Assembly (NCBI GenBank): GCA_963836185.1
Contig: CAWIIQ010000001.1
Span: forward strand, 64,001 to 128,000
Reading direction: 5' to 3'
Source of the DNA: Candidatus Krumholzibacteriia bacterium
Lineage (GTDB): Bacteria; Krumholzibacteriota; Krumholzibacteriia; Krumholzibacteriales; Krumholzibacteriaceae
Length of the DNA: 64,000 nt
Below the pieces are notes generated by a model. That model saw only the letters and a list, made by a program, of their open reading frames with translations. It did not search any database and was not told the DNA's origin. Shown in pieces: positions 2,040 to 57,498 of this stretch (position 1 is its first letter; each line of letters starts with the position of its first letter). The position numbers and the translations under genes are program-made.

Positions 2040-3467
2040 ATGTCACTGCAGGTCTACAACAGGTACAAGGGTAGAAAAGAGGAGTTCCAGCCGGTCGAAG
2101 AGGGAAAGGTCGGGATCTATTTCTGCGGGATGACGGTCCAGGACAAGCCGCACATGGGGCATATGCTCGCCTTTGTCGCCGGCGACATGATAAGGCGCTA
2201 CCTGAAGTTCAGGGGGTACGATGTCAAGTATGTGCAGAATTTCACCGATGTAGACGACAAGATCATATCGAAGGCGAATGACGAGGGCATCGAGTTCACG
2301 GAAGTCGCCCAGAGAAATATAGACGAGTACTTCAGATTCGCCGGCGATCTCAATATCATGCCGGCGGACATCTATCCGAAGGCCACTGAACATATCGACG
2401 ATATAATCGGCCTGATAAAGAGACTCGAGGAGGAAGGGTTCGCCTACAAGGGCGGCAGCGACGTTTATTACCGTGTCAGGAAGTTCCCCGCATACGGGAA
2501 GCTCTCAGGCAGGATCATAGATGACCTGCAGTCCGGAGCTAGGATCGAAGTCGGTGATGAGAAAGAGGACCCCCTCGACTTTACTCTCTGGAAGGGAGCC
2601 AAGGAAGGGGAGCCGGCGTGGGATTCCCCCTGGGGGCCGGGTCGTCCGGGGTGGCATATCGAGTGCTCGGTGATGTCGATGAAGTATCTTGGAAACACAC
2701 TCGACATGCACGGCGGCGGGATGGACCTCGTCTTTCCGCATCACGAGAACGAGATCGCGCAGAGCGAGGCCGCCACGGGCAGCGAGTACGTGAAATATTG
2801 GATGCACAACGGCCTGCTCAACCTCAGCGGCGAGAAGATGTCGAAATCGACGGGGCATTTCTTCCTTATCGAGGACATACTGAAGGAGTTCTCCGGAGAA
2901 GTGGTAAGGTTCTACTTCCTTTCGACTCATTTCAGGAGCAACAGCGAGTTCGGGCGTGAACGGCTCGCGGAAGCTGCTGCCGGGTTCGAACGCATCCGCG
3001 AGTTCTGCACGAGGCTCGATGAGGCTCGCACGGCCTCGGAGGGCGGAGTTGGCTGGGACGACAGGATTAACGACCTTGTCAGCAAGGTCCGCGAGGATTT
3101 CATGGCCTCGATGGATGACGATTTCAACAGTGCCGAAGCGATAGGCCGCATATTCCATCTTATCCGGGAAGTTAATGTCATAACAGGCGGCGACATCGCG
3201 AAGCTCGCCGCATTTCCGGAATCGCTCGAGAAAATGCTCGGCGATTTCGAGACGTATGACTCGATCCTCGGACTCTTCGCCGAAGGCCTTCCAGGGGCAG
3301 GCACAGATATCCCCGATGAGGTCGTTCAGATGGTCAGGGACAGGGAAGAGGCGAGGAAATCGAAAGACTGGGCGAGGGCCGACGAGTTGCGGGACGCGGT
3401 CCTGGCGGCCGGCTTTACGATAGAGGACAGGGCTGAGGGGACGAGGATCAGTCGCTCGAAGAGTTGA
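2040..3467 (+). CDS. cysS: Cysteine--tRNA ligase
   Basis: CGMTV..HMGH (HIGH), GRPGWHIECS, FPHHENE, KMSKS. Confidence 0.97.
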   Translation: MSLQVYNRYKGRKEEFQPVEEGKVGIYFCGMTVQDKPHMGHMLAFVAGDMIRRYLKFRGYDVKYVQNFTDVDDKIISKANDEGIEFTEVAQRNIDEYFRFAGDLNIMPADIYPKATEHIDDIIGLIKRLEEEGFAYKGGSDVYYRVRKFPAYGKLSGRIIDDLQSGARIEVGDEKEDPLDFTLWKGAKEGEPAWDSPWGPGRPGWHIECSVMSMKYLGNTLDMHGGGMDLVFPHHENEIAQSEAATGSEYVKYWMHNGLLNLSGEKMSKSTGHFFLIEDILKEFSGEVVRFYFLSTHFRSNSEFGRERLAEAAAGFERIREFCTRLDEARTASEGGVGWDDRINDLVSKVREDFMASMDDDFNSAEAIGRIFHLIREVNVITGGDIAKLAAFPESLEKMLGDFETYDSILGLFAEGLPGAGTDIPDEVVQMVRDREEARKSKDWARADELRDAVLAAGFTIEDRAEGTRISRSKS

Positions 3468-3906
3468 CGGGCATCAGGTCGCCCTTGGGCATCAACAGGA
3501 CCCAGAGCAGGATCGGAAGGAAAAAGTTGACCGTGAGGTTGAGGAACTCCGTTCCGGTCCAGAGCTGCTCGTTTCTCGTGAAAGCGCTCAGGAAAATGAA
3601 AAAGACGGTGATGATGTTGGCCGCCGTCAGTATGAGCACTCCGATCAGCGCCGGCCTGATCCTTTCCTTCCAGGCGACTCCATTTACCGCGATGACCAGC
3701 GAGAGATAGACTATCGGGTTCAGAGAGATCTCCTCGGTGACCTTGAGAGCGTTCTCCACGACAAGTGAGTTTCCGGTGAGGGCGACGAGCGGCTTCGCTC
3801 CGTACGCCACGACCAGGGTATAGTATCTCCCCGTGAACATCCAGGCGGTATAGAGCACAAGCGAGACGACGATAAACCGGACGAAGAAGATGAGGATCCT
3901 CTTCAT
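3448..3906 (-). CDS. Exosortase-associated multi-pass membrane protein (degenerate exosortase-like); alternative start 3936
   Basis: About 4 hydrophobic helices; segment WKERIRPALIGVLILTAANII parallels the neighbouring exosortase (IKEKVIGLLIGIPAIHLLNLIR) but no Cys/Arg/His triad. Confidence 0.65.
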   Translation of the reverse strand: MKRILIFFVRFIVVSLVLYTAWMFTGRYYTLVVAYGAKPLVALTGNSLVVENALKVTEEISLNPIVYLSLVIAVNGVAWKERIRPALIGVLILTAANIITVFFIFLSAFTRNEQLWTGTEFLNLTVNFFLPILLWVLLMPKGDLMPVNSSSD

Positions 3907-3942
3907 GTCGGGCCTTCTTTCTCCCGCATCAGCCATATCCGC

Positions 3943-4530
3943 CTATCCTGCCTTTCTCGGCTTGACGATCTTTGCCATCCAGAATATCACAAGCAGGAGC
4001 ATGAAGATGACGAAAATGACCTGCCAGAAGTATCCGTGGAAGAACCCGAACAGCTCTCTCTTGTGAAAAAGGACGAGAGAGACGACGACCATCCGGATCA
4101 GGTTGAGCAGATGGATGGCGGGGATCCCGATCAGCAGCCCGATCACCTTCTCCTTGATGCTTGCGGGGTATGCCCCGATGATCGAGAAATAGATCATCTT
4201 GGTATAGATGCCCGTGCATTCTGTGATGACGATGAGTCTCTCTCCGCCATGATCCGTATGGAATGTGAAAATGTTGCCGATGCGGGTAAACCAGTAGTTC
4301 AGTCTGTCGAGGACCCAGGCGAGCTCACTCGAAACGAGAAGCTGCATCGAGCCAGGTTCATGCGGATCATTCATCCCGTGAAGAAATCCGGGGATCCTTT
4401 TCGTCATTAAATAGGAAAAAAGCCAGAGGGCAAAGAAGAGAATCAGGAATACGATAAAATCCCTGCGGAAGGATCTTGAAATCCTTCGCGCCTCTCCCGT
4501 TTGACCTTCTGGCTTCTTTCCGTGGCCCAA
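3943..4530 (-). CDS. Exosortase/archaeosortase family protein (exosortase H-like)
   Basis: Triad motifs ITECTG (Cys), LLNLIR (Arg), FFHGYFWQ (His) in a multi-TM protein; directly downstream of a gene with a CTERM-type tail. Confidence 0.88.
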   Translation of the reverse strand: MGHGKKPEGQTGEARRISRSFRRDFIVFLILFFALWLFSYLMTKRIPGFLHGMNDPHEPGSMQLLVSSELAWVLDRLNYWFTRIGNIFTFHTDHGGERLIVITECTGIYTKMIYFSIIGAYPASIKEKVIGLLIGIPAIHLLNLIRMVVVSLVLFHKRELFGFFHGYFWQVIFVIFMLLLVIFWMAKIVKPRKAG

Positions 4531-4575
4531 CCGTTACTCTTTCAATACCTCACGATATAATCGGCAATTCGGTTC

Positions 4576-5526
4576 CTAGGCCTTGCTTACAGCGTGCCTC
4601 TTCATAATGACGGCGGCAGCGAGGATCATGGCAAGAACCAGGATCGTCACGACCGGAGCAGTGAAGAGAGGTACGGGGACAGGCTCGACTACGTGGATCG
4701 CCTGAACGCAGGTATCGTATACGGTGCCGGTGGCGGCATCCCATGCGATGATCGTCAGGGTGTCGTAATCGCAGACTGCGGCAGCGCCAGCATTGACGAT
4801 ACCATAAACGTCCCCACATGTTCCACCAACGACGCCTACGATCGTCTCAGACACTGCAAGCGCGGGGCCTACAACGCCGAGGCTCGTGATCGTGTAGTCA
4901 TAGTCGGTCGGCGGAGCACAAGGATCACCATTGCAGATCGCGAACGGGATGTAACCGGCGGTCACGCCCTGCTCGATGAAGTACAGGGTGTCCTGAAGGA
5001 TGGACAGTGCCGGAGGTGACTCCACGATCTCGATCGTCATGGTGTCGATCCAGTGGCGAAGTGTGCCACTGTAGTAACTGTCCTCACAGTCGCCACTGTC
5101 AGGCTGGCAAATGAGGTCGGTATCGCTGAAGCACTGGATCGCGATGACCATGTTGGTCGTACCGACGGTGACCGAGCAGGGAACCGTGATACAGGTCTCG
5201 TCCGGCCAGTAGTTGCCAGCGCCAAGCGTGAACGGACCATATACGCCAAACTCTTCCTCTTCAGACCAGGGGTTCGTCATCGTCCAGCCGAGCTCATCGG
5301 AAAGGACTACGCAGAACGTATCCGGATTGGGGCAGATCGAACCGGCGAGGAAGCCAAAGTTCGTAGGAGCAAGACCGAAGCATGCGGTCTCGCCAGCGAT
5401 CATTGTGGCGTCGCCACCGAATCCGTAAAAGAATCCGGGGTCGCCATCTTTGACCACGATGGCTGAGTTGGCAGCGACAGGAAGCAGCATCGTTATGGCA
5501 AGCGCCATGATTGCGAGCTTCTTCAT
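4576..5526 (-). CDS. Secreted Cys-rich acidic surface protein with exosortase-type C-terminal sorting signal
   Basis: Signal peptide MKKLAIMALAITMLLPVAANSA after GGAGG RBS; C-terminus VEPVPVPLFTAP + hydrophobic helix + KRHAVSKA. Confidence 0.85.
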   Translation of the reverse strand: MKKLAIMALAITMLLPVAANSAIVVKDGDPGFFYGFGGDATMIAGETACFGLAPTNFGFLAGSICPNPDTFCVVLSDELGWTMTNPWSEEEEFGVYGPFTLGAGNYWPDETCITVPCSVTVGTTNMVIAIQCFSDTDLICQPDSGDCEDSYYSGTLRHWIDTMTIEIVESPPALSILQDTLYFIEQGVTAGYIPFAICNGDPCAPPTDYDYTITSLGVVGPALAVSETIVGVVGGTCGDVYGIVNAGAAAVCDYDTLTIIAWDAATGTVYDTCVQAIHVVEPVPVPLFTAPVVTILVLAMILAAAVIMKRHAVSKA

Positions 5527-5871
5527 TTTCGAAACCTCCAAGTTGAACAGTGAAGAAGTCATCCCTTTCGGGAATGTCGTCTTCGGATTAACAGACTTGA
5601 TTGGCCTGTCGGTGGTTTCTGCGGATTTGAAACAACCCGCGACCGGCCGCCAGGGTCAGAGCGTTATAGGTGCCCGTTGATTTACTGTCTGTTCTATCCT
5701 CCTTATCGGGTCAGCCCCTCTCGGGCATCGCGGTGAAACCGGGAAACGCACGTAAAGACATGACCGCCCCTACGCTCGATTCGATGGGTTTCCTTCCCGT
5801 TCAAAATTTCCCTACCGTACTGCTTCGTGAAGTATGCGGCAGGCCCTGGGCCTGAAGCGTACCTACCGACA
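5527..5871 (-). promoter_or_regulatory. Long structured 5' untranslated leader of the surface-protein gene
   Basis: No convincing ORF between predicted promoter and ATG; long-range pairing 5861-5871 with 5607-5616 plus nested hairpins. Confidence 0.5.
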
Positions 5872-12081: not shown

Positions 12082-15872
<3,791 letters not shown>

Positions 15873-15889
15873 AGATACGGAGGTATCCG

Positions 15890-20001
<4,112 letters not shown>

Positions 20002-20044
20002 GTATGAGCCGGGAAGTGCCTCCCGACTCGACTAAATTTATTTC

Positions 20045-20073
20045 TTGACAGGGACATAACAGGATGTTAGATT
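20045..20073 (+). promoter_or_regulatory. Sigma70 promoter of str operon
   Basis: TTGACA-N17-TAGATT with TG extension, AT-rich upstream. Confidence 0.7.
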
Positions 20074-20150
20074 GCTCATCTGCGCAATGATTTGCCTGTC
20101 GGTAGTTAAAATAATCGACAATAGAGCGAGAGCAGGAGAAAAGGTATAAC

Positions 20151-20535
20151 GTGCCTACTATTAATCAGTTAGTGCGAAAGGGCAGAAAAGCCCAGACAAA
20201 GAAGACAAGCGCTCCGGCGCTGCAGGCCTGTCCCCAGAAGCGGGGAGTCTGCACGAGGGTCTATACTTCGACGCCGAAAAAGCCCAACTCGGCTATCCGT
20301 AAGGTCGCTCAGAGTAAGGCTCGTAAACGGTTTCGAAGTGACCGCGTACATTCCCGGGGAGGGACATAATCTCCAGGAGCATTCGATCGTACTCGTCAGG
20401 GGAGGCAGGGTAAAGGATCTCCCCGGCGTCAGATATCATATAGTCCGCGGCACTCTTGACACCAGCGGTGTCGACGGCCGTACGAAGCGCCGTTCGAAGT
20501 ACGGCGTCAAGAGGCCCAAGAAGGCCACGTCCTAG
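20151..20535 (+). CDS. rpsL: 30S ribosomal protein S12 (apparent +1 frameshift ~20310)
   Basis: [17 protein letters not shown], then [24 protein letters not shown] in next frame. Confidence 0.95.
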
Positions 20536-20549
20536 AAGGAGCAATCGTA

Positions 20550-21020
20550 ATGCCTCGCAGACGGGAAGTAGTAAAAAGAGATATAACGCCTGATCCGAAG
20601 TACGGCGACGTCCTTCTGGCTCGTTTCATCAACTATCTGATGCGCAGGGGCAAGAAGAGTACGGCCGAGCGGATCGTATATGACGCCATCGATATGATCG
20701 AGGAGAAGACAGGCCAGAGTGGTGTCGATGTCCTCAAGAAGGCGATAGAGAATGTCAAGCCGGTCCTCGAGGTCACCTCGAGGAGGGTCGGCGGGGCCAC
20801 GTATCAGGTTCCGATCGAGGTCCGTCCCAATCGCAGGCTCGCGCTGGCGATGCGATGGATCATCGGCTACGCGAAGGACAGGCCCGAGAGAAAGATGGCG
20901 CAGAAGCTCTCCGTCGAGCTCCTCAACGCCTACAACAAAGAGGGCCCGTCGGTCAAGAAGCGCGAGGATACGCACAGAATGGCAGAGGCCAACAAGGCCT
21001 TCGCTCATTACAGGTGGTAG
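20550..21020 (+). CDS. rpsG: 30S ribosomal protein S7
   Basis: [24 protein letters not shown]. Confidence 0.97.
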
Positions 21021-21258
21021 ACAGCATCCCCGGCTACTGCTGGTTCGGGATGCTTTGATATAAGAGGTGTGGGGTGGAATCCCTGCCGAAGCCTTCGAGT
21101 TGCAATTGAAGGAACCGGCGGGAAGACGAGGGAAAGAATTAAATGGTTTACAGGCAGCTTTGCTTTAACAGCATTAACCGCCGTATGACCCTCTGATCCC
21201 CTGTCGGGCTTTTGCCGGGCAGTCGGGAGATCATGGGTCCGGCGCTGGAGAAAGTTCG

Positions 21259-23339
21259 ATGTCAAGAGATTACCCTCTAGACAAGACTCGTAATATCGGT
21301 ATCGCCGCGCATATCGACGCGGGGAAGACTACCGTGACGGAAAGGATCCTGTTCTATTCGGGCAAGGTCCACCGTATGGGCGAGGTGCATGAGGGCAGCG
21401 CGGTGATGGACTGGATGGAGCAGGAGCGCGAACGCGGTATCACGATCACATCGGCCGCTACGACCTGCGACTGGAAGGATCACCGGATCAATATCATCGA
21501 TACCCCGGGGCACGTCGATTTCACCGTAGAGGTCGAGAGAAGCCTCAGGGTGCTTGACGGCGTCGTCGCGGTCTTCTGCGCGGTCGGCGGTGTCGAGCCG
21601 CAGTCCGAGACGGTATGGCGGCAGGCGGACAAGTATTCCATTCCGCGTCTCGCGTTCGTCAACAAGATGGATCGCGTAGGCTCGGATTTTCTGAATGTGG
21701 TGCAGATGATGCGCACGAAGCTCAAGGCGAACGCGATACCGGTCCAGCTCCCCATCGGAGCGGGAGAGGATTTTACCGGGATCGCCGACCTGATCAGCAT
21801 GAAAGCCTACACATATGACAACGAGAATCTCGGCTCTACATATGTAGAGAGTGTCATCCCGGAGGACCTGATGGTCTCGTGTGAGATGGCGAGAGAAGAG
21901 CTTCTCGAATCTCTCGCCGATTATGATGAAGAAATCGTTCATCACGTCCTGGACGGAGCCGACGTGAGTGAAGAGACTATAAGGAAGGCCCTGCGCAAGG
22001 CAGTGCTGGACGCGGCCGTCGTGCCGGTCCTCTGCGGTTCGGCCTTCAAGAACAAGGGCGTGCAGCATCTTCTCAATGCGGTCGTCGACCTTCTTCCCAA
22101 CCCGATGGATGTCCCGCCGGTAAAAGGCGTGAACCCCTTCTCGAAGCTGGAAGAGGAGAGGGCGGCCGATCCGAATGCGCCATTCGCGGCTCTCGTGTTC
22201 AAGGTCATGACGGACCCTTACGTCGGGCTGCTTCATTACATGAGGGTCTACAGCGGAACGGTCAAGACGGGGACGCATATCGTGAACGCGTCGAACAAGA
22301 AGAAGGAGCGCTTCGGCCGTGTGCTTCTCATGCACGCCAACAAGCGCGAAGAGCTGACCGAAGTATCGGCCGGCGACATCGTTGCGGTCGTCGGGTTGAA
22401 GCATTCGGGTACAGGTGACACGCTGTGCGATACGAAGCATCCTCTCATGCTCGAGATGATGGATTTCCCCGAGCCGGTGATCCCGTGGCGATAGAGCCGA
22501 AGACGAAGGCCGACGAACTGAAGCTTTCGGAGGCCCTGGGAAGGTTGAGCAACGAGGATCCTACATTCGTCGTAAAGATCGACGAGGATACAGGTCAGAC
22601 GCTGATATCCGGGATGGGCGAACTTCACCTCGAGATCCTGGTCGACAGGATGCTCAGGGAGTTCAGTGTCCACGCGAATGTCGGACGCCCCCAGGTCGCC
22701 TTCAAGGAGACGATCACGAAGAAGACCCGCAGCGAGGGACGATTCGTCCGCCAGAGCGGCGGAAGGGGCCAGTACGGGCATGCTATCGTCGAGATCGAGC
22801 CGAATCCCGGTGGAGGCTTCGAGTTCGAGACCAGGATGCGGGGAGCTGCTGTTCCCAAGCAGTATGTGCCGTATGTCGAGGAAGGTATCCGCCAGTCGAT
22901 GGCCAGCGGGCCTGTCAACGGCTGTCCGATGGTCGATGTGAAGGTCACTCTGATCGACGGCTCGTTCCACGAGGTCGATTCGAGCGAGCTGGCCTTCCGA
23001 GTCGCGGGCAGCATGGCCTTCAACGATGGAGTGAGGAAGGCCGGGCCGGTTCTTCTCGAGCCGGTAATGGACGTCGAAGTGGTTCTCCCGACGGAGTACG
23101 TCGGAGACGTCATGAGCGATCTTAATATGCGAAGAGGTAAAGTCGAAGGGATGTCCCAGCGCGCCGATACACAGGTTATTGCAGCGAGGGCGCCCCTTTC
23201 CGACATGTTCGGTTACGCGACAGCCCTGCGTTCGCTGACGCAGGGGCGGGCGATCTACAGCATGCAGTTCTCACATTATGACCGGGTGCCCGGAGAGATG
23301 GTCGCGCAGCTACAGGGCAGGGTGCGAGGTCTGGCCTGA
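21259..23339 (+). CDS. fusA: Elongation factor G (apparent -1 frameshift ~22482)
   Basis: [34 protein letters not shown]; length plus 1 nt is a multiple of 3. Confidence 0.95.
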
Positions 23340-51136: not shown

Positions 51137-52553
51137 CTATCTGAGCAGCACCATCTTCTTCGTCTCCGAGAACGAAGGTGCCGTAAGCTGGTAGAAGTAT
51201 ACTCCGCTGGAGACGGGCTGGCCCTGATCGTTCGTTCCGTACCAGCTCACCTCTCTGGTGCCGGAAGGTTCATGACCGTTGACCAGGGTCCTGACCAGCC
51301 TGCCCGCACTGTCATAGATGTGCAGCGATACGTTCGCACCCCCATCGGGTACCACGAAGGAGATCGTCGTGGTGGGATTGAAGGGATTCGGGACGTTCTG
51401 CTGCAGGCTGAACGCGGGCAAGGGCTGTACGGCGTCGCCCTTGGCCACCTCGGCCCCGTCAGCTTCGAGTGTTGCGGGCGGCGGGAGGGGACAGTCGAAG
51501 GCCGGGTCCACGACACACTTGTAGGAGATCCGGAATCCCTCCACCGCCTGGTCGAGCCCGGGGATGGTAGCCATGATATCGGACTCGCTGTAGTAGTCTC
51601 GCGAGTAGTACGTCTGTGTGCTCCAGTCACGGAACTTGAGGATCGACATGCCCTTGGCGCTGTAGGGCACGCCATTGAAGCTGCCGACCATCGTCCACGT
51701 CGCTGTGTACACACCGCCGATCAGCATTTCATCCTCGACCGTGGTGACCAAATTGGGCGAACTGGCGAAGAGTCGCGCGAAAAAGGGCACCAGCGTGTCG
51801 AAGCCGTAGATGTCGACGATCGGATCGTGATACTCGTAATCGTCGGTATAGTACGGCAGCAGCGATTGCCAATTCGAGGCGTTGATCTCGACGAGCGCGC
51901 GTCCGATCTCGAGACGTTCCTGGCGCAACCTGACCACACCGCCGCGCGCGGTTGTCCGAAGCCGGCGAGTCGAGCAAAGGTTCGATTGCGGGCAGGGCGT
52001 CGGCCGCGGCCGGCTCGAGAGGGCAGTCGAAGGTTGGGTCGACGGCGCACCGGTAGTATGTGCGGAATCCCAGGATCGCTTCATCGAAGCCGGGGATATT
52101 GATCATGATGTCGCCTTCAGAGTAGTAGTCCCGCCAGTAGTAGACCTCCCTGCTCCTGGGACGGAACTTGATGATCGAAATCCCCTTGGCTTCGTAGGGC
52201 ACGCCGTTGAAGCTGCCGACCATCGTCCAGGTCGCCGAGTACACGTCGCCCACCAGGGTTTCGTCTTCGATCGTCGTGATGAGGTCCGGCGAGCTGCCGT
52301 ACAGCCGCCCGAGGAACTGCGTCAACATATCGATGCCGTAGACGTCGACGATCGAATCGTGGTACTCGATGTCGTCAGCGTAGTAGCCCAACAGCGTGGT
52401 CCAGTCCACGTTCTGCACCTCGAGCATGCCGCGCCCGATCTCCAGCCGATCCTGGCGCAACCTGCCCCAACCGTGGCCCCTGGGGCTGGCAAGGACAGGC
52501 GTGAGCACAAGAATGCAGATGAAAATCACTGAGCAAGTGAACAGCTTTCTCAT
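51137..52553 (-). CDS. Secreted protein: two tandem SnoaL/NTF2-like domains + FlgD-Ig/T9SS-type C-terminal domain (apparent +1 frameshift ~51948)
   Basis: Signal peptide MRKLFTC..; YYADDIEYHD/YYTDDYEYHDP repeats; LQQNVPNPFNP..G.LVRTL..SGVYFYQL..KKMVLLR. Confidence 0.82.
51488..52464 (-). repeat. Intragenic duplication of ~445 bp (51488-51932 and 52021-52464)
   Basis: Shared DNA blocks such as GGGCACGCC(G/A)TTGAAGCTGCCGACCATCGTCCA and CCTGGCGCAACCTG. Confidence 0.85.
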
Positions 52554-52781
52554 CTTTCGCCTCCTAGAGCTAATCCTATGGTGTATAAACTGTAGGACCA
52601 TTATAGCACGAAATGTTGTGCAATTCAATCTCAGTCAGGAATGATTATTGATTTCCTCCCTTGCATGTACAGCAGTTAATAATAGACCTGCTTCATGTCA
52701 TCGGGCGCCGGATCTCCAGGCAGGCCAAGAATCTGGAGGGTGCAAGGCAACTGACGATCCGTTCATCTCGTATACTGTAAT

Positions 52782-56334: not shown

Positions 56335-57498
56335 ATGGTTAAAATAAAAGCGCGAATCGCTCTGGTCGCATTGTGTTGTTCTGTTTGTGTTTTGACTTCC
56401 GTTCAGATTCTCGCGGCTGACATAAGCCTGGTCGACAGCGGCCAGAGTCTTGGCGATGGACGGACCTTTTCCATGGCCCTGGGGGATCTGGATGGTGATG
56501 ACGACCTTGACGTATTTTTCGCGTGCTATATCCAGTCGAATATAGTCTGGCTCAACGACGGTGCCGGCATATTTACGGACAGCGGCCAGAATCTTGGCGG
56601 CTCGTCGGGACACGGCGTCGCCCTGGGCGATCTGGACGGTGATAACGATCTTGATGCCTTCGTGGTGTTTAACAGCTCTTCCGACAGGGTGTACCTGAAC
56701 GACGGGTCCGGACTTTTCTCAGATAGTGGCCAGAGTCTCGGCGTTGCGGGTGACTATGGAAACTTTGTCATATTGGGAGATATCGACGGGGACAACGACC
56801 TGGATGCACTGGTTGCTTTGTATGAGCATCCGAACAGAGTCTGGATCAACGATGGGGCAGGGAATTTTTCTGACCAGGGACAGAGGCTGGGCAATAATAG
56901 TTCAGGAGCTATGGCGTTCGGAGACCTGGATTCTGACAACGACCTCGATATTTATCTCGCTGTTGCATCCGCGGCCGACCGGATATGGTTGAATGACGGG
57001 GAAGGGACATTCGTTGACAGCGGCCAGAGCCTGGGGCCGGGCGATGGCTATGGACAGGCCGCTCTCGCCGACCTCGATGGTGACGACGACCTTGACGCGT
57101 TTGTCGTAAACTCGAATAACAGCAGCAGGATCTACCTGAACGATGGATCCGGGCTGTTCAGTGATTCGGGCCAGTTGCTGGGGCTCGGCAGCCAGAGGAT
57201 CTGTCTCGTCGATCTTGATCGCAACGGTACCGTCGATGCGGTAACGACCCATATGGCGAACGGGAACCCTGTCTGGATCAACGATGGAGCGGGCACTTTC
57301 AGCCATTCCGGCCAGAGCCTGGATGTGCTGAATGCTCTCGCCATCTCTTCGGGCGATGTGGATGGAGACGATGACTTCGATCTGTTACTCGGTATGCTGG
57401 AAGGCTCAGGCGGGAACAAACTCTATTTCAACGAGACGCTTCTTTCAACGGAGGCTACGAGCTGGGGACGGCTCAAGTCACTCTTCGGCAGCGATTAA
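56335..57498 (+). CDS. Secreted FG-GAP/VCBS repeat beta-propeller with C-terminal SWGxxKxxF motif
   Basis: Signal peptide; seven to eight repeats of DSGQ.LG..GDLDGD.DLD..W.NDG.G.F; ends STEATSWGRLKSLFGSD. Confidence 0.9.
   Translation: MVKIKARIALVALCCSVCVLTSVQILAADISLVDSGQSLGDGRTFSMALGDLDGDDDLDVFFACYIQSNIVWLNDGAGIFTDSGQNLGGSSGHGVALGDLDGDNDLDAFVVFNSSSDRVYLNDGSGLFSDSGQSLGVAGDYGNFVILGDIDGDNDLDALVALYEHPNRVWINDGAGNFSDQGQRLGNNSSGAMAFGDLDSDNDLDIYLAVASAADRIWLNDGEGTFVDSGQSLGPGDGYGQAALADLDGDDDLDAFVVNSNNSSRIYLNDGSGLFSDSGQLLGLGSQRICLVDLDRNGTVDAVTTHMANGNPVWINDGAGTFSHSGQSLDVLNALAISSGDVDGDDDFDLLLGMLEGSGGNKLYFNETLLSTEATSWGRLKSLFGSD

Follow-up and report, generated by a model that had tools for sequence, protein, structure and literature searches.

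The 64,000-nucleotide stretch of Candidatus Krumholzibacteriia DNA that we analysed (the window) carries on its forward strand a 387-aa ORF for an exported FG-GAP beta-propeller protein, which closes with ETLLSTEATSWGRLKSLFGSD and a stop codon (the translation of 57433-57498, +). This tail includes a linker and a nine-residue core that we refer to as the tag (Table 1). The preliminary description of this locus had proposed a secreted propeller protein with a short C-terminal tail and no transmembrane (TM) segment, and that picture stands: there are seven stretches matching PF13517, a heuristic search of the ORF for TM segments found none, and the protein has an N-terminal hydrophobic signal, which our heuristic signal-peptide finder missed and which was called by eye. 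The tail had also been described as an amphipathic helix. Its amphipathic character is supported by a hydrophobic moment of 0.41 for the nine core residues and a mean of 0.33 over the tail (values that come with no shuffled control for comparison), and the helix itself is predicted only for a homologous segment, the end of a lipoprotein that we call A and discuss below.

Table 1. Features of the window, with positions counted from its first nucleotide
Feature	Position	Strand	Evidence or remark
Exosortase-family gene	3943..4530	-	TIGR04178 53.5 bits (cut-off 23); XrtH 68.1, under its cut-off of 86
Exported protein, hydrophobic helix and basic residues at its end	4576..5562	-	No NCBIfam match
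SnoaL-domain protein with T9SS type A / FlgD-Ig CTD	51137..52084	-	TIGR04183 34.3 bits (cut-off 23)
Tagged FG-GAP beta-propeller ORF, 387 aa, exported	56335..57498	+	PF13517 E 2.7e-41, 7 stretches
Probable Sec signal peptide, residues 1-27	56335..56415	+	Called by eye
FG-GAP repeat propeller	56419..57432	+	Alignment with homologues reaches the last strand (KLYFN); they diverge beyond it
Linker ETLLSTEAT	57433..57459	+	S371-T372, small plus beta-branched pair at W-6/W-5
Tag core SWGRLKSLF (S376-F384), predicted docking helix	57460..57486	+	Best-supported predicted contacts with lipoprotein B: W377, G378, K381

The tag is absent from all 120 listed homologues of this protein, 18 of which have PF18962 or PF13860. 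In P0013 (56% identity) and P0015 (52%), its closest homologues of near-full length, a T9SS/FlgD CTD begins exactly at the position of the tag, in agreement with the earlier suggestion that the tag occupies the place where T9SS CTDs otherwise occur.

The window had further been expected to hold three distinct C-terminal targeting codes, and in outline it does. Besides the tag, there are the CTD of the SnoaL-domain protein and an exosortase-linked pair of genes (3943-5562), the second of which, judging from its adjacency to the exosortase-family gene, likely encodes the exosortase target, with a tail that matches no model. The surrounding region (3448-5562, -) comprises the exosortase-family gene, a membrane gene resembling XrtH-associated ones (a very weak match) and, upstream, the exported protein with its TM helix and basic tail, and it is possible that these represent a new exosortase/target pair. 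Two tandem SnoaL/NTF2-like ORFs, the second with the terminal T9SS CTD, lie at 51137-52628 (-), and probably represent either a tandem pair or a single exported protein interrupted by a frameshift. At 12082-23339 (+), rpoB, rpoC and the EF-G gene are split in pieces, which suggests indel errors in the assembly.

The tag in the source genome

The core of the tag, (S/T)W(G/S)x(I/L/V)Kxx(Y/F), occurs in 31 ORFs of the source genome (G000; 3.5 Mb in 6 contigs, 92.5% complete), always at the C-terminus. The narrower expression [ST]WG..K..[FY] matches 12 times among 20,178 six-frame ORFs, in all 12 cases at most nine residues from the stop, and the numbers expected from composition are about 0.46 anywhere in the called genes and about 0.015 near C-termini. 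An iterated PWM gave 30 matches above 25 bits, 30 of 30 C-terminal, with the top internal match at 12.9; the total of 31 consists of these and of one C-terminal ORF of 14.1 bits that the HMM also finds. Two marginal PWM matches (19.3 and 18.6 bits) are kept outside the 31, the former being among the 12 matches to the narrower expression. Across the 31 tags, W is invariant (100%), and G, I and K are conserved in 94%, 97% and 97%; the 'TEAT' segment is lineage-specific, the general part being the W-G-x-I-K core. A cytochrome-like protein at C1:1492334-1492885 (L032) has a marginal tag-like motif followed by nine further residues, and is not among the 31.

Once the tails are removed, the 31 tagged ORFs fall into 20 unrelated BLAST clusters, whose domains include propeller, beta-helix, lamin-tail, choice-of-anchor W and thioester/Ig, together with many that are unknown. 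The proteins are small (median 217 aa vs 742 aa for CTD cargo) and also Cys-rich. Signal peptides were called by heuristic in 21 of the 31, compared to 491 of 2688 other genes (p=3e-9) and to 53 of 106 CTD proteins; among the ten tagged ORFs that the heuristic missed, seven are frameshift fragments with the signal in an upstream frame, two were recognised by eye and one is unclear, and heuristic and inspection together place a Sec signal peptide in 30 of 31. The tail thus passed the three tests that the preliminary description had put forward, namely that it should be frequent in the proteome, biased toward the C-terminus and associated with signal peptides, and we infer that it directs export or surface attachment. 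Among the neighbours listed for the 31 tagged genes, there is no partner common to them.

Cysteine is frequent at W-9 and W-10 of the tagged proteins (29% and 19%), which suggests that many cargo domains are closed by a disulfide immediately ahead of the linker. Many genes of this genome are frameshifted, including that of SprA and that of the ~650-aa barrel introduced below, and we read these frameshifts as assembly errors.

Relation to the T9SS signal

The T9SS inventory of the source genome includes 111 FlgD_ig matches, SprA (frameshifted, 308.6 bits), 11 PorV-family matches and PorU (554 bits); the search of this 92.5% complete genome with TIGR03517 (GldM), run with no positive control, gave no match. 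Eight of the 31 tagged proteins have a domain in common with one of its 96 CTD proteins. TIGR04183, PF18962 and PF13860 match none of 27 tagged proteins, nor the 30-residue tail of the window protein, and the tag extends for about 9-16 aa after the cargo domain, vs about 43-82 aa for the beta-sheet of the type A CTD with its motifs B, D and E. The short CTDs of 43-55 aa reported in Prevotella intermedia are predicted three-stranded sheets that keep motifs B, D and E (PMC11969387).

The linker pair S371-T372 resembles, at the level of sequence, T9SS cleavage-site linkers, and a putative cleavage site could be placed there. A cleavage preference for PT/GI with a small residue at +1 is described in one report (PMC11969387); PorU cleavage is described in another as sequence-independent (PMC4804311), and for this reason the resemblance of the linker speaks only weakly for cleavage. 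Scored with a PWM built on the six residues that precede the tag, 10% of 88 CTD linkers exceed 7 bits, vs 0.9% of background windows. Of the 31 tags of the source genome, 27 have a small residue followed by I, V or T at W-6; such a pair is found at W-5 in 16 of 23 proteins of the X family (see below) and occurs in 17 of 70 other tags, against a background of 4.6%; proline occupies W-6 in 56% of those 70.

In the neighbourhoods of the PorV genes of the source genome, CTD proteins lie nearby, a tagged gene is seen in 1 of 11 and no partner emerges. Many of these eleven PorV-family genes directly adjoin one CTD protein, which suggests cargo-specific shuttles. At C1:2025126-2041052 (L031:5127-20000), a PorU-PorV operon is followed by an M6-like T9SS protein, two DUF5683-like proteins, an NHL protein, a barrel of 1105 aa and an Omp85 protein, possibly further T9SS components of this lineage. 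Both this barrel, which is a weak SprA match (E 0.007), and a PorW-like lipoprotein were considered in the search for a partner.

A candidate machinery: the barrel-A-B operon

The preliminary description knew of no defined machinery for such tails, and a candidate has now been found. At C3:84814-90072 of the source genome, a frameshifted barrel gene is followed by that of lipoprotein A (87468-88058) and by four paralogues of a lipoprotein that we call B, two of them intact, with a B gene at 86790-87374. In 18 of 21 loci, all of which were picked for having a B match, the order ksgA, barrel (~650 aa), A, B and divergent polysaccharide deacetylase is found in full. No Pfam or NCBIfam model matches the tag, A, B, the barrel or X. 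The last residue of the barrel is aromatic, as in outer-membrane barrels, its neighbours in the Atlas are barrels without names, its BBP2/SlipAM leads are weak (recognition 1968, under the mark of 2300) and a PDB sequence search with it gave no match.

A and B are homologous (hhalign 98.7%), and both were modelled confidently (pLDDT 93.5 and 94.3) as NTF2-like cones, a fold supported by 70 structural matches at E<=0.001 (Z 13.5, rmsd 2.5, 121 aligned). The PDB sequence search with A as query returned only NTF2-like matches at E>=0.07, and no solved relative among them. The model of B stops at the last strand; that of A runs on into a confident helix (residues 166-175), which is a version of the tag, with the loose motif in 23 of 26 A rows and the strict one in 16 of 26. 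This helix also aligns with the full tags borne in cis by many extra B paralogues and, judging from its pLDDT, would pack in A's own pocket.

The tag motif is present in 0 of 27 B rows of our alignment (A6), a figure that is partly due to selection, the rows having been hand-chosen and tag-ended B rows left out; the B of the source genome is also without it. Nine A-adjacent B genes of other lineages do end in a tag-like fashion (L194, L198, L202, L205, L215, L216, L218, L219, L234), so that an always-empty B pocket is not universal and exchange with the cis helix would be needed there. The N-termini of the 27 B rows have a net acidic excess of -1 to 3 at positions +2 to +9, a poor fit to the Bacteroidetes surface lipoprotein signal (LES), described as C-x-K-(D/E)2 or a similar acidic patch after the lipidated Cys (PMC5080379).

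Tandem arrays of B paralogues, each with a full tag in cis, were seen at L051, L053, L058, L064, L066, L195 and L204, and one paralogue carries two consecutive tags (L053:7125-7832); such tag-bearing tandem paralogues could plug themselves or chain into polymers. Stand-alone B clusters with degenerate tags lie apart from the barrel operon at L050:6129-8780 and L066:4472-5844.

Predicted docking of the tag on lipoprotein B

Mature B1 modelled together with the last 30 residues of the window protein gave a complex score of 0.86, and the best of three controls reached 0.26. The mark that we use for this score is reached by 116 of 157 solved pairs and by 2 of 215 mismatched pairs, counts that hold only roughly because our own alignments were used. 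At least 93% of contacts are common to the tag-B runs, with a partner pLDDT of at least 61. In the predicted geometry, W and G of the tag are flanked on the side of B by an aromatic wall and a conserved Asp, and the K is paired to an acidic residue that is likewise conserved. The best contacts link these three tag residues to B residues 58-60, 78, 81, 125, 127 and 168, and across 21 diverse rows positions D78 and D168 are acidic in 21 of 21, F58 is aromatic in 21 of 21, and position 125 is Tyr in 20 of 21. One unrelated 30-residue control was also placed on B, with 63 confident contacts and a score of 0.26. These models support binding of the tag to B, which we consider quite probable.

Distribution of the tag, the lipoproteins and SprA

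According to the preliminary description, tails of this kind would end many unrelated secreted proteins in four phyla. Among the 80 loci listed from a DNA-pattern scan, the record titles included Eisenbacteria, Krumholzibacteriia, Latescibacterota, Kapaibacterium, Melioribacter, Ignavibacteriaceae and others, in accordance with three of the four; Poribacteria was not among the 80. In the 49 genomes behind 50 of the 80 listed loci, B was found in 43, including 37 of 37 with 18-99 tags. Records titled Limnocylindria, Fibrobacteraceae and Verrucomicrobiia also carry dozens of tags and B (L086, L104, L122, L124, L125, L133); since two such genomes are also in our sample of the source organism's own phylum, these titles are probably unreliable.

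In that phylum (121 genomes), the tag was found in 121 of 121 (2-55 matches each), B in 117 and SprA in 121. A single-sequence search had found B in 54 of the 121, and a profile was used in its place. Tag and B copy numbers correlate (rho 0.44, unchanged after accounting for genome size), with tagged B paralogues included in the B counts. In the phylum of G168 (Bacteroidota-type, 151 genomes), B and the tag each occur in 55 genomes and the tag tracks B: both are present in 52 and neither in 93, with three B-only and three tag-only genomes. A closer search found a tagged X protein in two of the B-only genomes, G221 being the one without, and one of the tag-only genomes, G193, has a real X (the others are G274 and G276). 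The barrel was found in 51 of the 151, and 51 of 51 are B-positive.

SprA is present in 120 of these 151 genomes, among them 55 of the 55 that are B-positive, and B is present in 0 of the 31 SprA-negative ones. The remaining 65 of the 120 SprA-positive genomes are without the module, which means that the T9SS does not need the barrel-A-B module; none of the 151+121 genomes was seen to have the module but not SprA. The nesting of B within SprA-positive genomes could also be a matter of shared ancestry. In the phylum of G122, B was found in 60 of 61 genomes and the 18-position tag HMM matched 37 of 61 and missed 24; seven of the misses were re-searched with an X profile, and a tagged X was present in seven of seven. 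Because the genomes are kin, co-occurrence reflects few independent events, and for the same reason these tables are given without the weight of p-values; an absence may equal divergence beyond our profiles.

A single client: protein X

In the phyla of G168 and G122, the tag is almost always single-copy and borne by X, a signal-peptide protein of 130-150 aa with an FN3-like domain and the ending (R/K)TWG(S/M)(I/L)K(A/E)(M/L)F. The domain of X has four matches in the source genome, three of them inside listed CTD-bearing ORFs. No linkage between X, the A-B pair and the barrel was seen at the loci examined, and their co-occurrence is therefore not an artefact of one operon. We read single-copy X together with A, B and the barrel as the ancestral four-part module, with the direction of change being part of that reading. 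In Ignavibacteria/Kapabacteria-type genomes, the A-B pair often adjoins a gene that we take to be recR-like (best match G000 gene 2041), as in L225, L227, L247, L249, L255 and L257.

Discussion

We lean, if only a little, toward a reading in which the nine-residue tag docks as a helix in the B pocket and barrel, A and B hand the cargo to the T9SS translocon or hold it at the outer membrane. In such a pathway, the cargo would cross the inner membrane by Sec, B would capture its tag, the barrel and the lipoproteins would act as the carrier, in the place that PorV takes for type A CTDs, and in some lineages the linker might be a site of PorU cleavage. The origin of the tag probably lies in the module itself, either in A's terminal helix or in the single tagged X, with later reuse on dozens of proteins. 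On a larger scale, we would give an even chance to the proposal that an envelope module of four parts ranges over the FCB superphylum and sorts by donor-helix exchange, with the cargo helix displacing the lipoprotein's own in the NTF2 pocket, and that in Krumholzibacteria, Eisenbacteria and Latescibacteria it went from a start with one client to a general export or display code, borne by as many as ~100 proteins in a genome, being either a third T9SS signal class or a route with its own barrel.

Other readings of the same data need to be weighed. The tag might dock on B as proposed, and the ~650-aa barrel might be the translocon of a stand-alone export route independent of SprA. The nesting of the barrel with B (51/51), its operon with A and B, its aromatic terminus, its Atlas neighbours and the weak BBP2/SlipAM leads (1968, under 2300) all fit such a role, as does the small size of the tagged proteins (median 217 vs 742 aa), but 0 of the 151+121 genomes have the module and lack SprA, the tag linker resembles T9SS linkers and some tags elsewhere are found in frames of 800-1685 aa, and we regard this route as unlikely. 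Rather unlikely, in our opinion, is also that tag and B merely form a non-covalent tether on a lipid-anchored scaffold, similar to dockerin and cohesin and with no role in outer-membrane crossing, in which tagged B could chain head to tail. Such a tether would leave unexplained the tight co-occurrence of the barrel and its nesting in SprA-positive genomes, and there would be little reason for a tether in the periplasm to take the place of the T9SS CTD on the same domains, even though B is lipid-anchored and expands with the number of tags, many extra B paralogues carry the full tag in cis, and the one tagged protein in two phyla is easier to reconcile with a fixed complex than with a pathway of general use.

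The two readings that dispense with B fare worse. It is improbable that a PorV paralogue reads the tag directly, as a T9SS CTD of minimal size, with the fit to the lipoprotein being incidental. The source genome does have 11 PorV-family matches, SprA and PorU, and CTDs of only 43-55 aa exist in Prevotella intermedia, but those short CTDs are predicted sheets with motifs B, D and E, none of which the tag of ~9-16 aa has (PMC11969387). Moreover, TIGR04183 and PF18962 match none of the 27 tagged proteins searched, a tagged gene lies near PorV in 1 of 11 neighbourhoods, and the tag tracks B and not SprA. Membrane-targeting sequences such as those of MinD and FtsA are amphipathic helices that bind lipid, and the tag, being amphipathic and basic with a moment of 0.33-0.41 and no TM segment, could be taken for a generic helix of that type without any protein partner. 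The conservation of W (100%), G (94%), I (97%) and K (97%), however, exceeds what amphipathicity needs, the tag co-occurs gene for gene with B and it is homologous to A's terminal helix, all of which makes this explanation very improbable indeed.

In terms of known systems, the tag is neither a T9SS type A CTD nor a GlyGly-CTERM signal, though it is T9SS-like in position and GlyGly-CTERM-like in pairing. With the type A CTD (TIGR04183, PF18962, FlgD_ig PF13860; PorV, SprA/Sov, PorU), it has in common the C-terminal placement on signal-peptide cargo, the position on homologous cargo, a linker that resembles the T9SS one in part of the tags and, in the genomes searched, the constant presence of SprA. 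That CTD, however, is a 43-82-residue beta-sheet domain read by PorV, whereas the tag has 9-16 residues, a predicted helical form and a predicted NTF2 lipoprotein as its reader. The T9SS type B CTD uses PorP/SprF partner barrels and offers a precedent for a second signal class with its own outer-membrane partner; it has no sequence match to the tag, whose candidate partner is instead the ~650-aa barrel (no Pfam, NCBIfam or PDB match) with two lipoproteins.

The tripartite signals, namely LPXTG/sortase, PEP-CTERM/exosortase and GlyGly-CTERM/rhombosortase, are similar to the tag in being short C-terminal signals paired many-to-one with a dedicated, co-distributed protein, with tails that interchange in homologues, but differ in having a TM helix after the motif and a membrane protease as partner, where the tag would have a pocket-bearing lipoprotein (PMC3237569). 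The motif-TM-basic architecture was looked for in the tails of the 31 tagged ORFs, with a TM segment in 0 of 31 and no match to a CTERM model. Donor-strand complementation in type V pili also involves an element supplied in trans, a lipoprotein anchor and possible chaining, as would tag and B; there, however, a strand enters a sandwich, vs a helix that would enter an NTF2 cone, and no relation in sequence or fold was found. Cohesin-dockerin pairing likewise is the docking on a partner of an element supplied in trans, again with no sequence or fold relation found. As for the NTF2-like superfamily (PDB 3rob, 1tp6), which provides the fold common to A and B, identity to B is at most 13%, and the matches listed are enzymes, designed binders and uncharacterised proteins, none of them described as a sorting-signal receptor. 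The BAM beta-signal, in which the alternating beta-strand of a barrel protein ends with an aromatic residue, does not fit the tags either, given that these end in R, K, N, D and other residues on non-barrel domains. A search of the literature, including by motif string, brought up no description of the tag or of the module in the sources that it covered.

The short C-terminal sorting signals known so far depend on a TM helix together with a protease, and in the T9SS the signal is a folded beta domain. If our reading is correct, a nine-residue helix read by the pocket of a lipoprotein would represent a different recognition principle, with three uncharacterised families as its machinery. In the Ignavibacteria-type genomes (records including Melioribacter and Ignavibacteriaceae), the single-copy tag provides a minimal form of the system that can be tested, and so small a tag could serve protein display. 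Furthermore, in several uncultured phyla, each genome has dozens of proteins without annotation that would thereby gain a destination.
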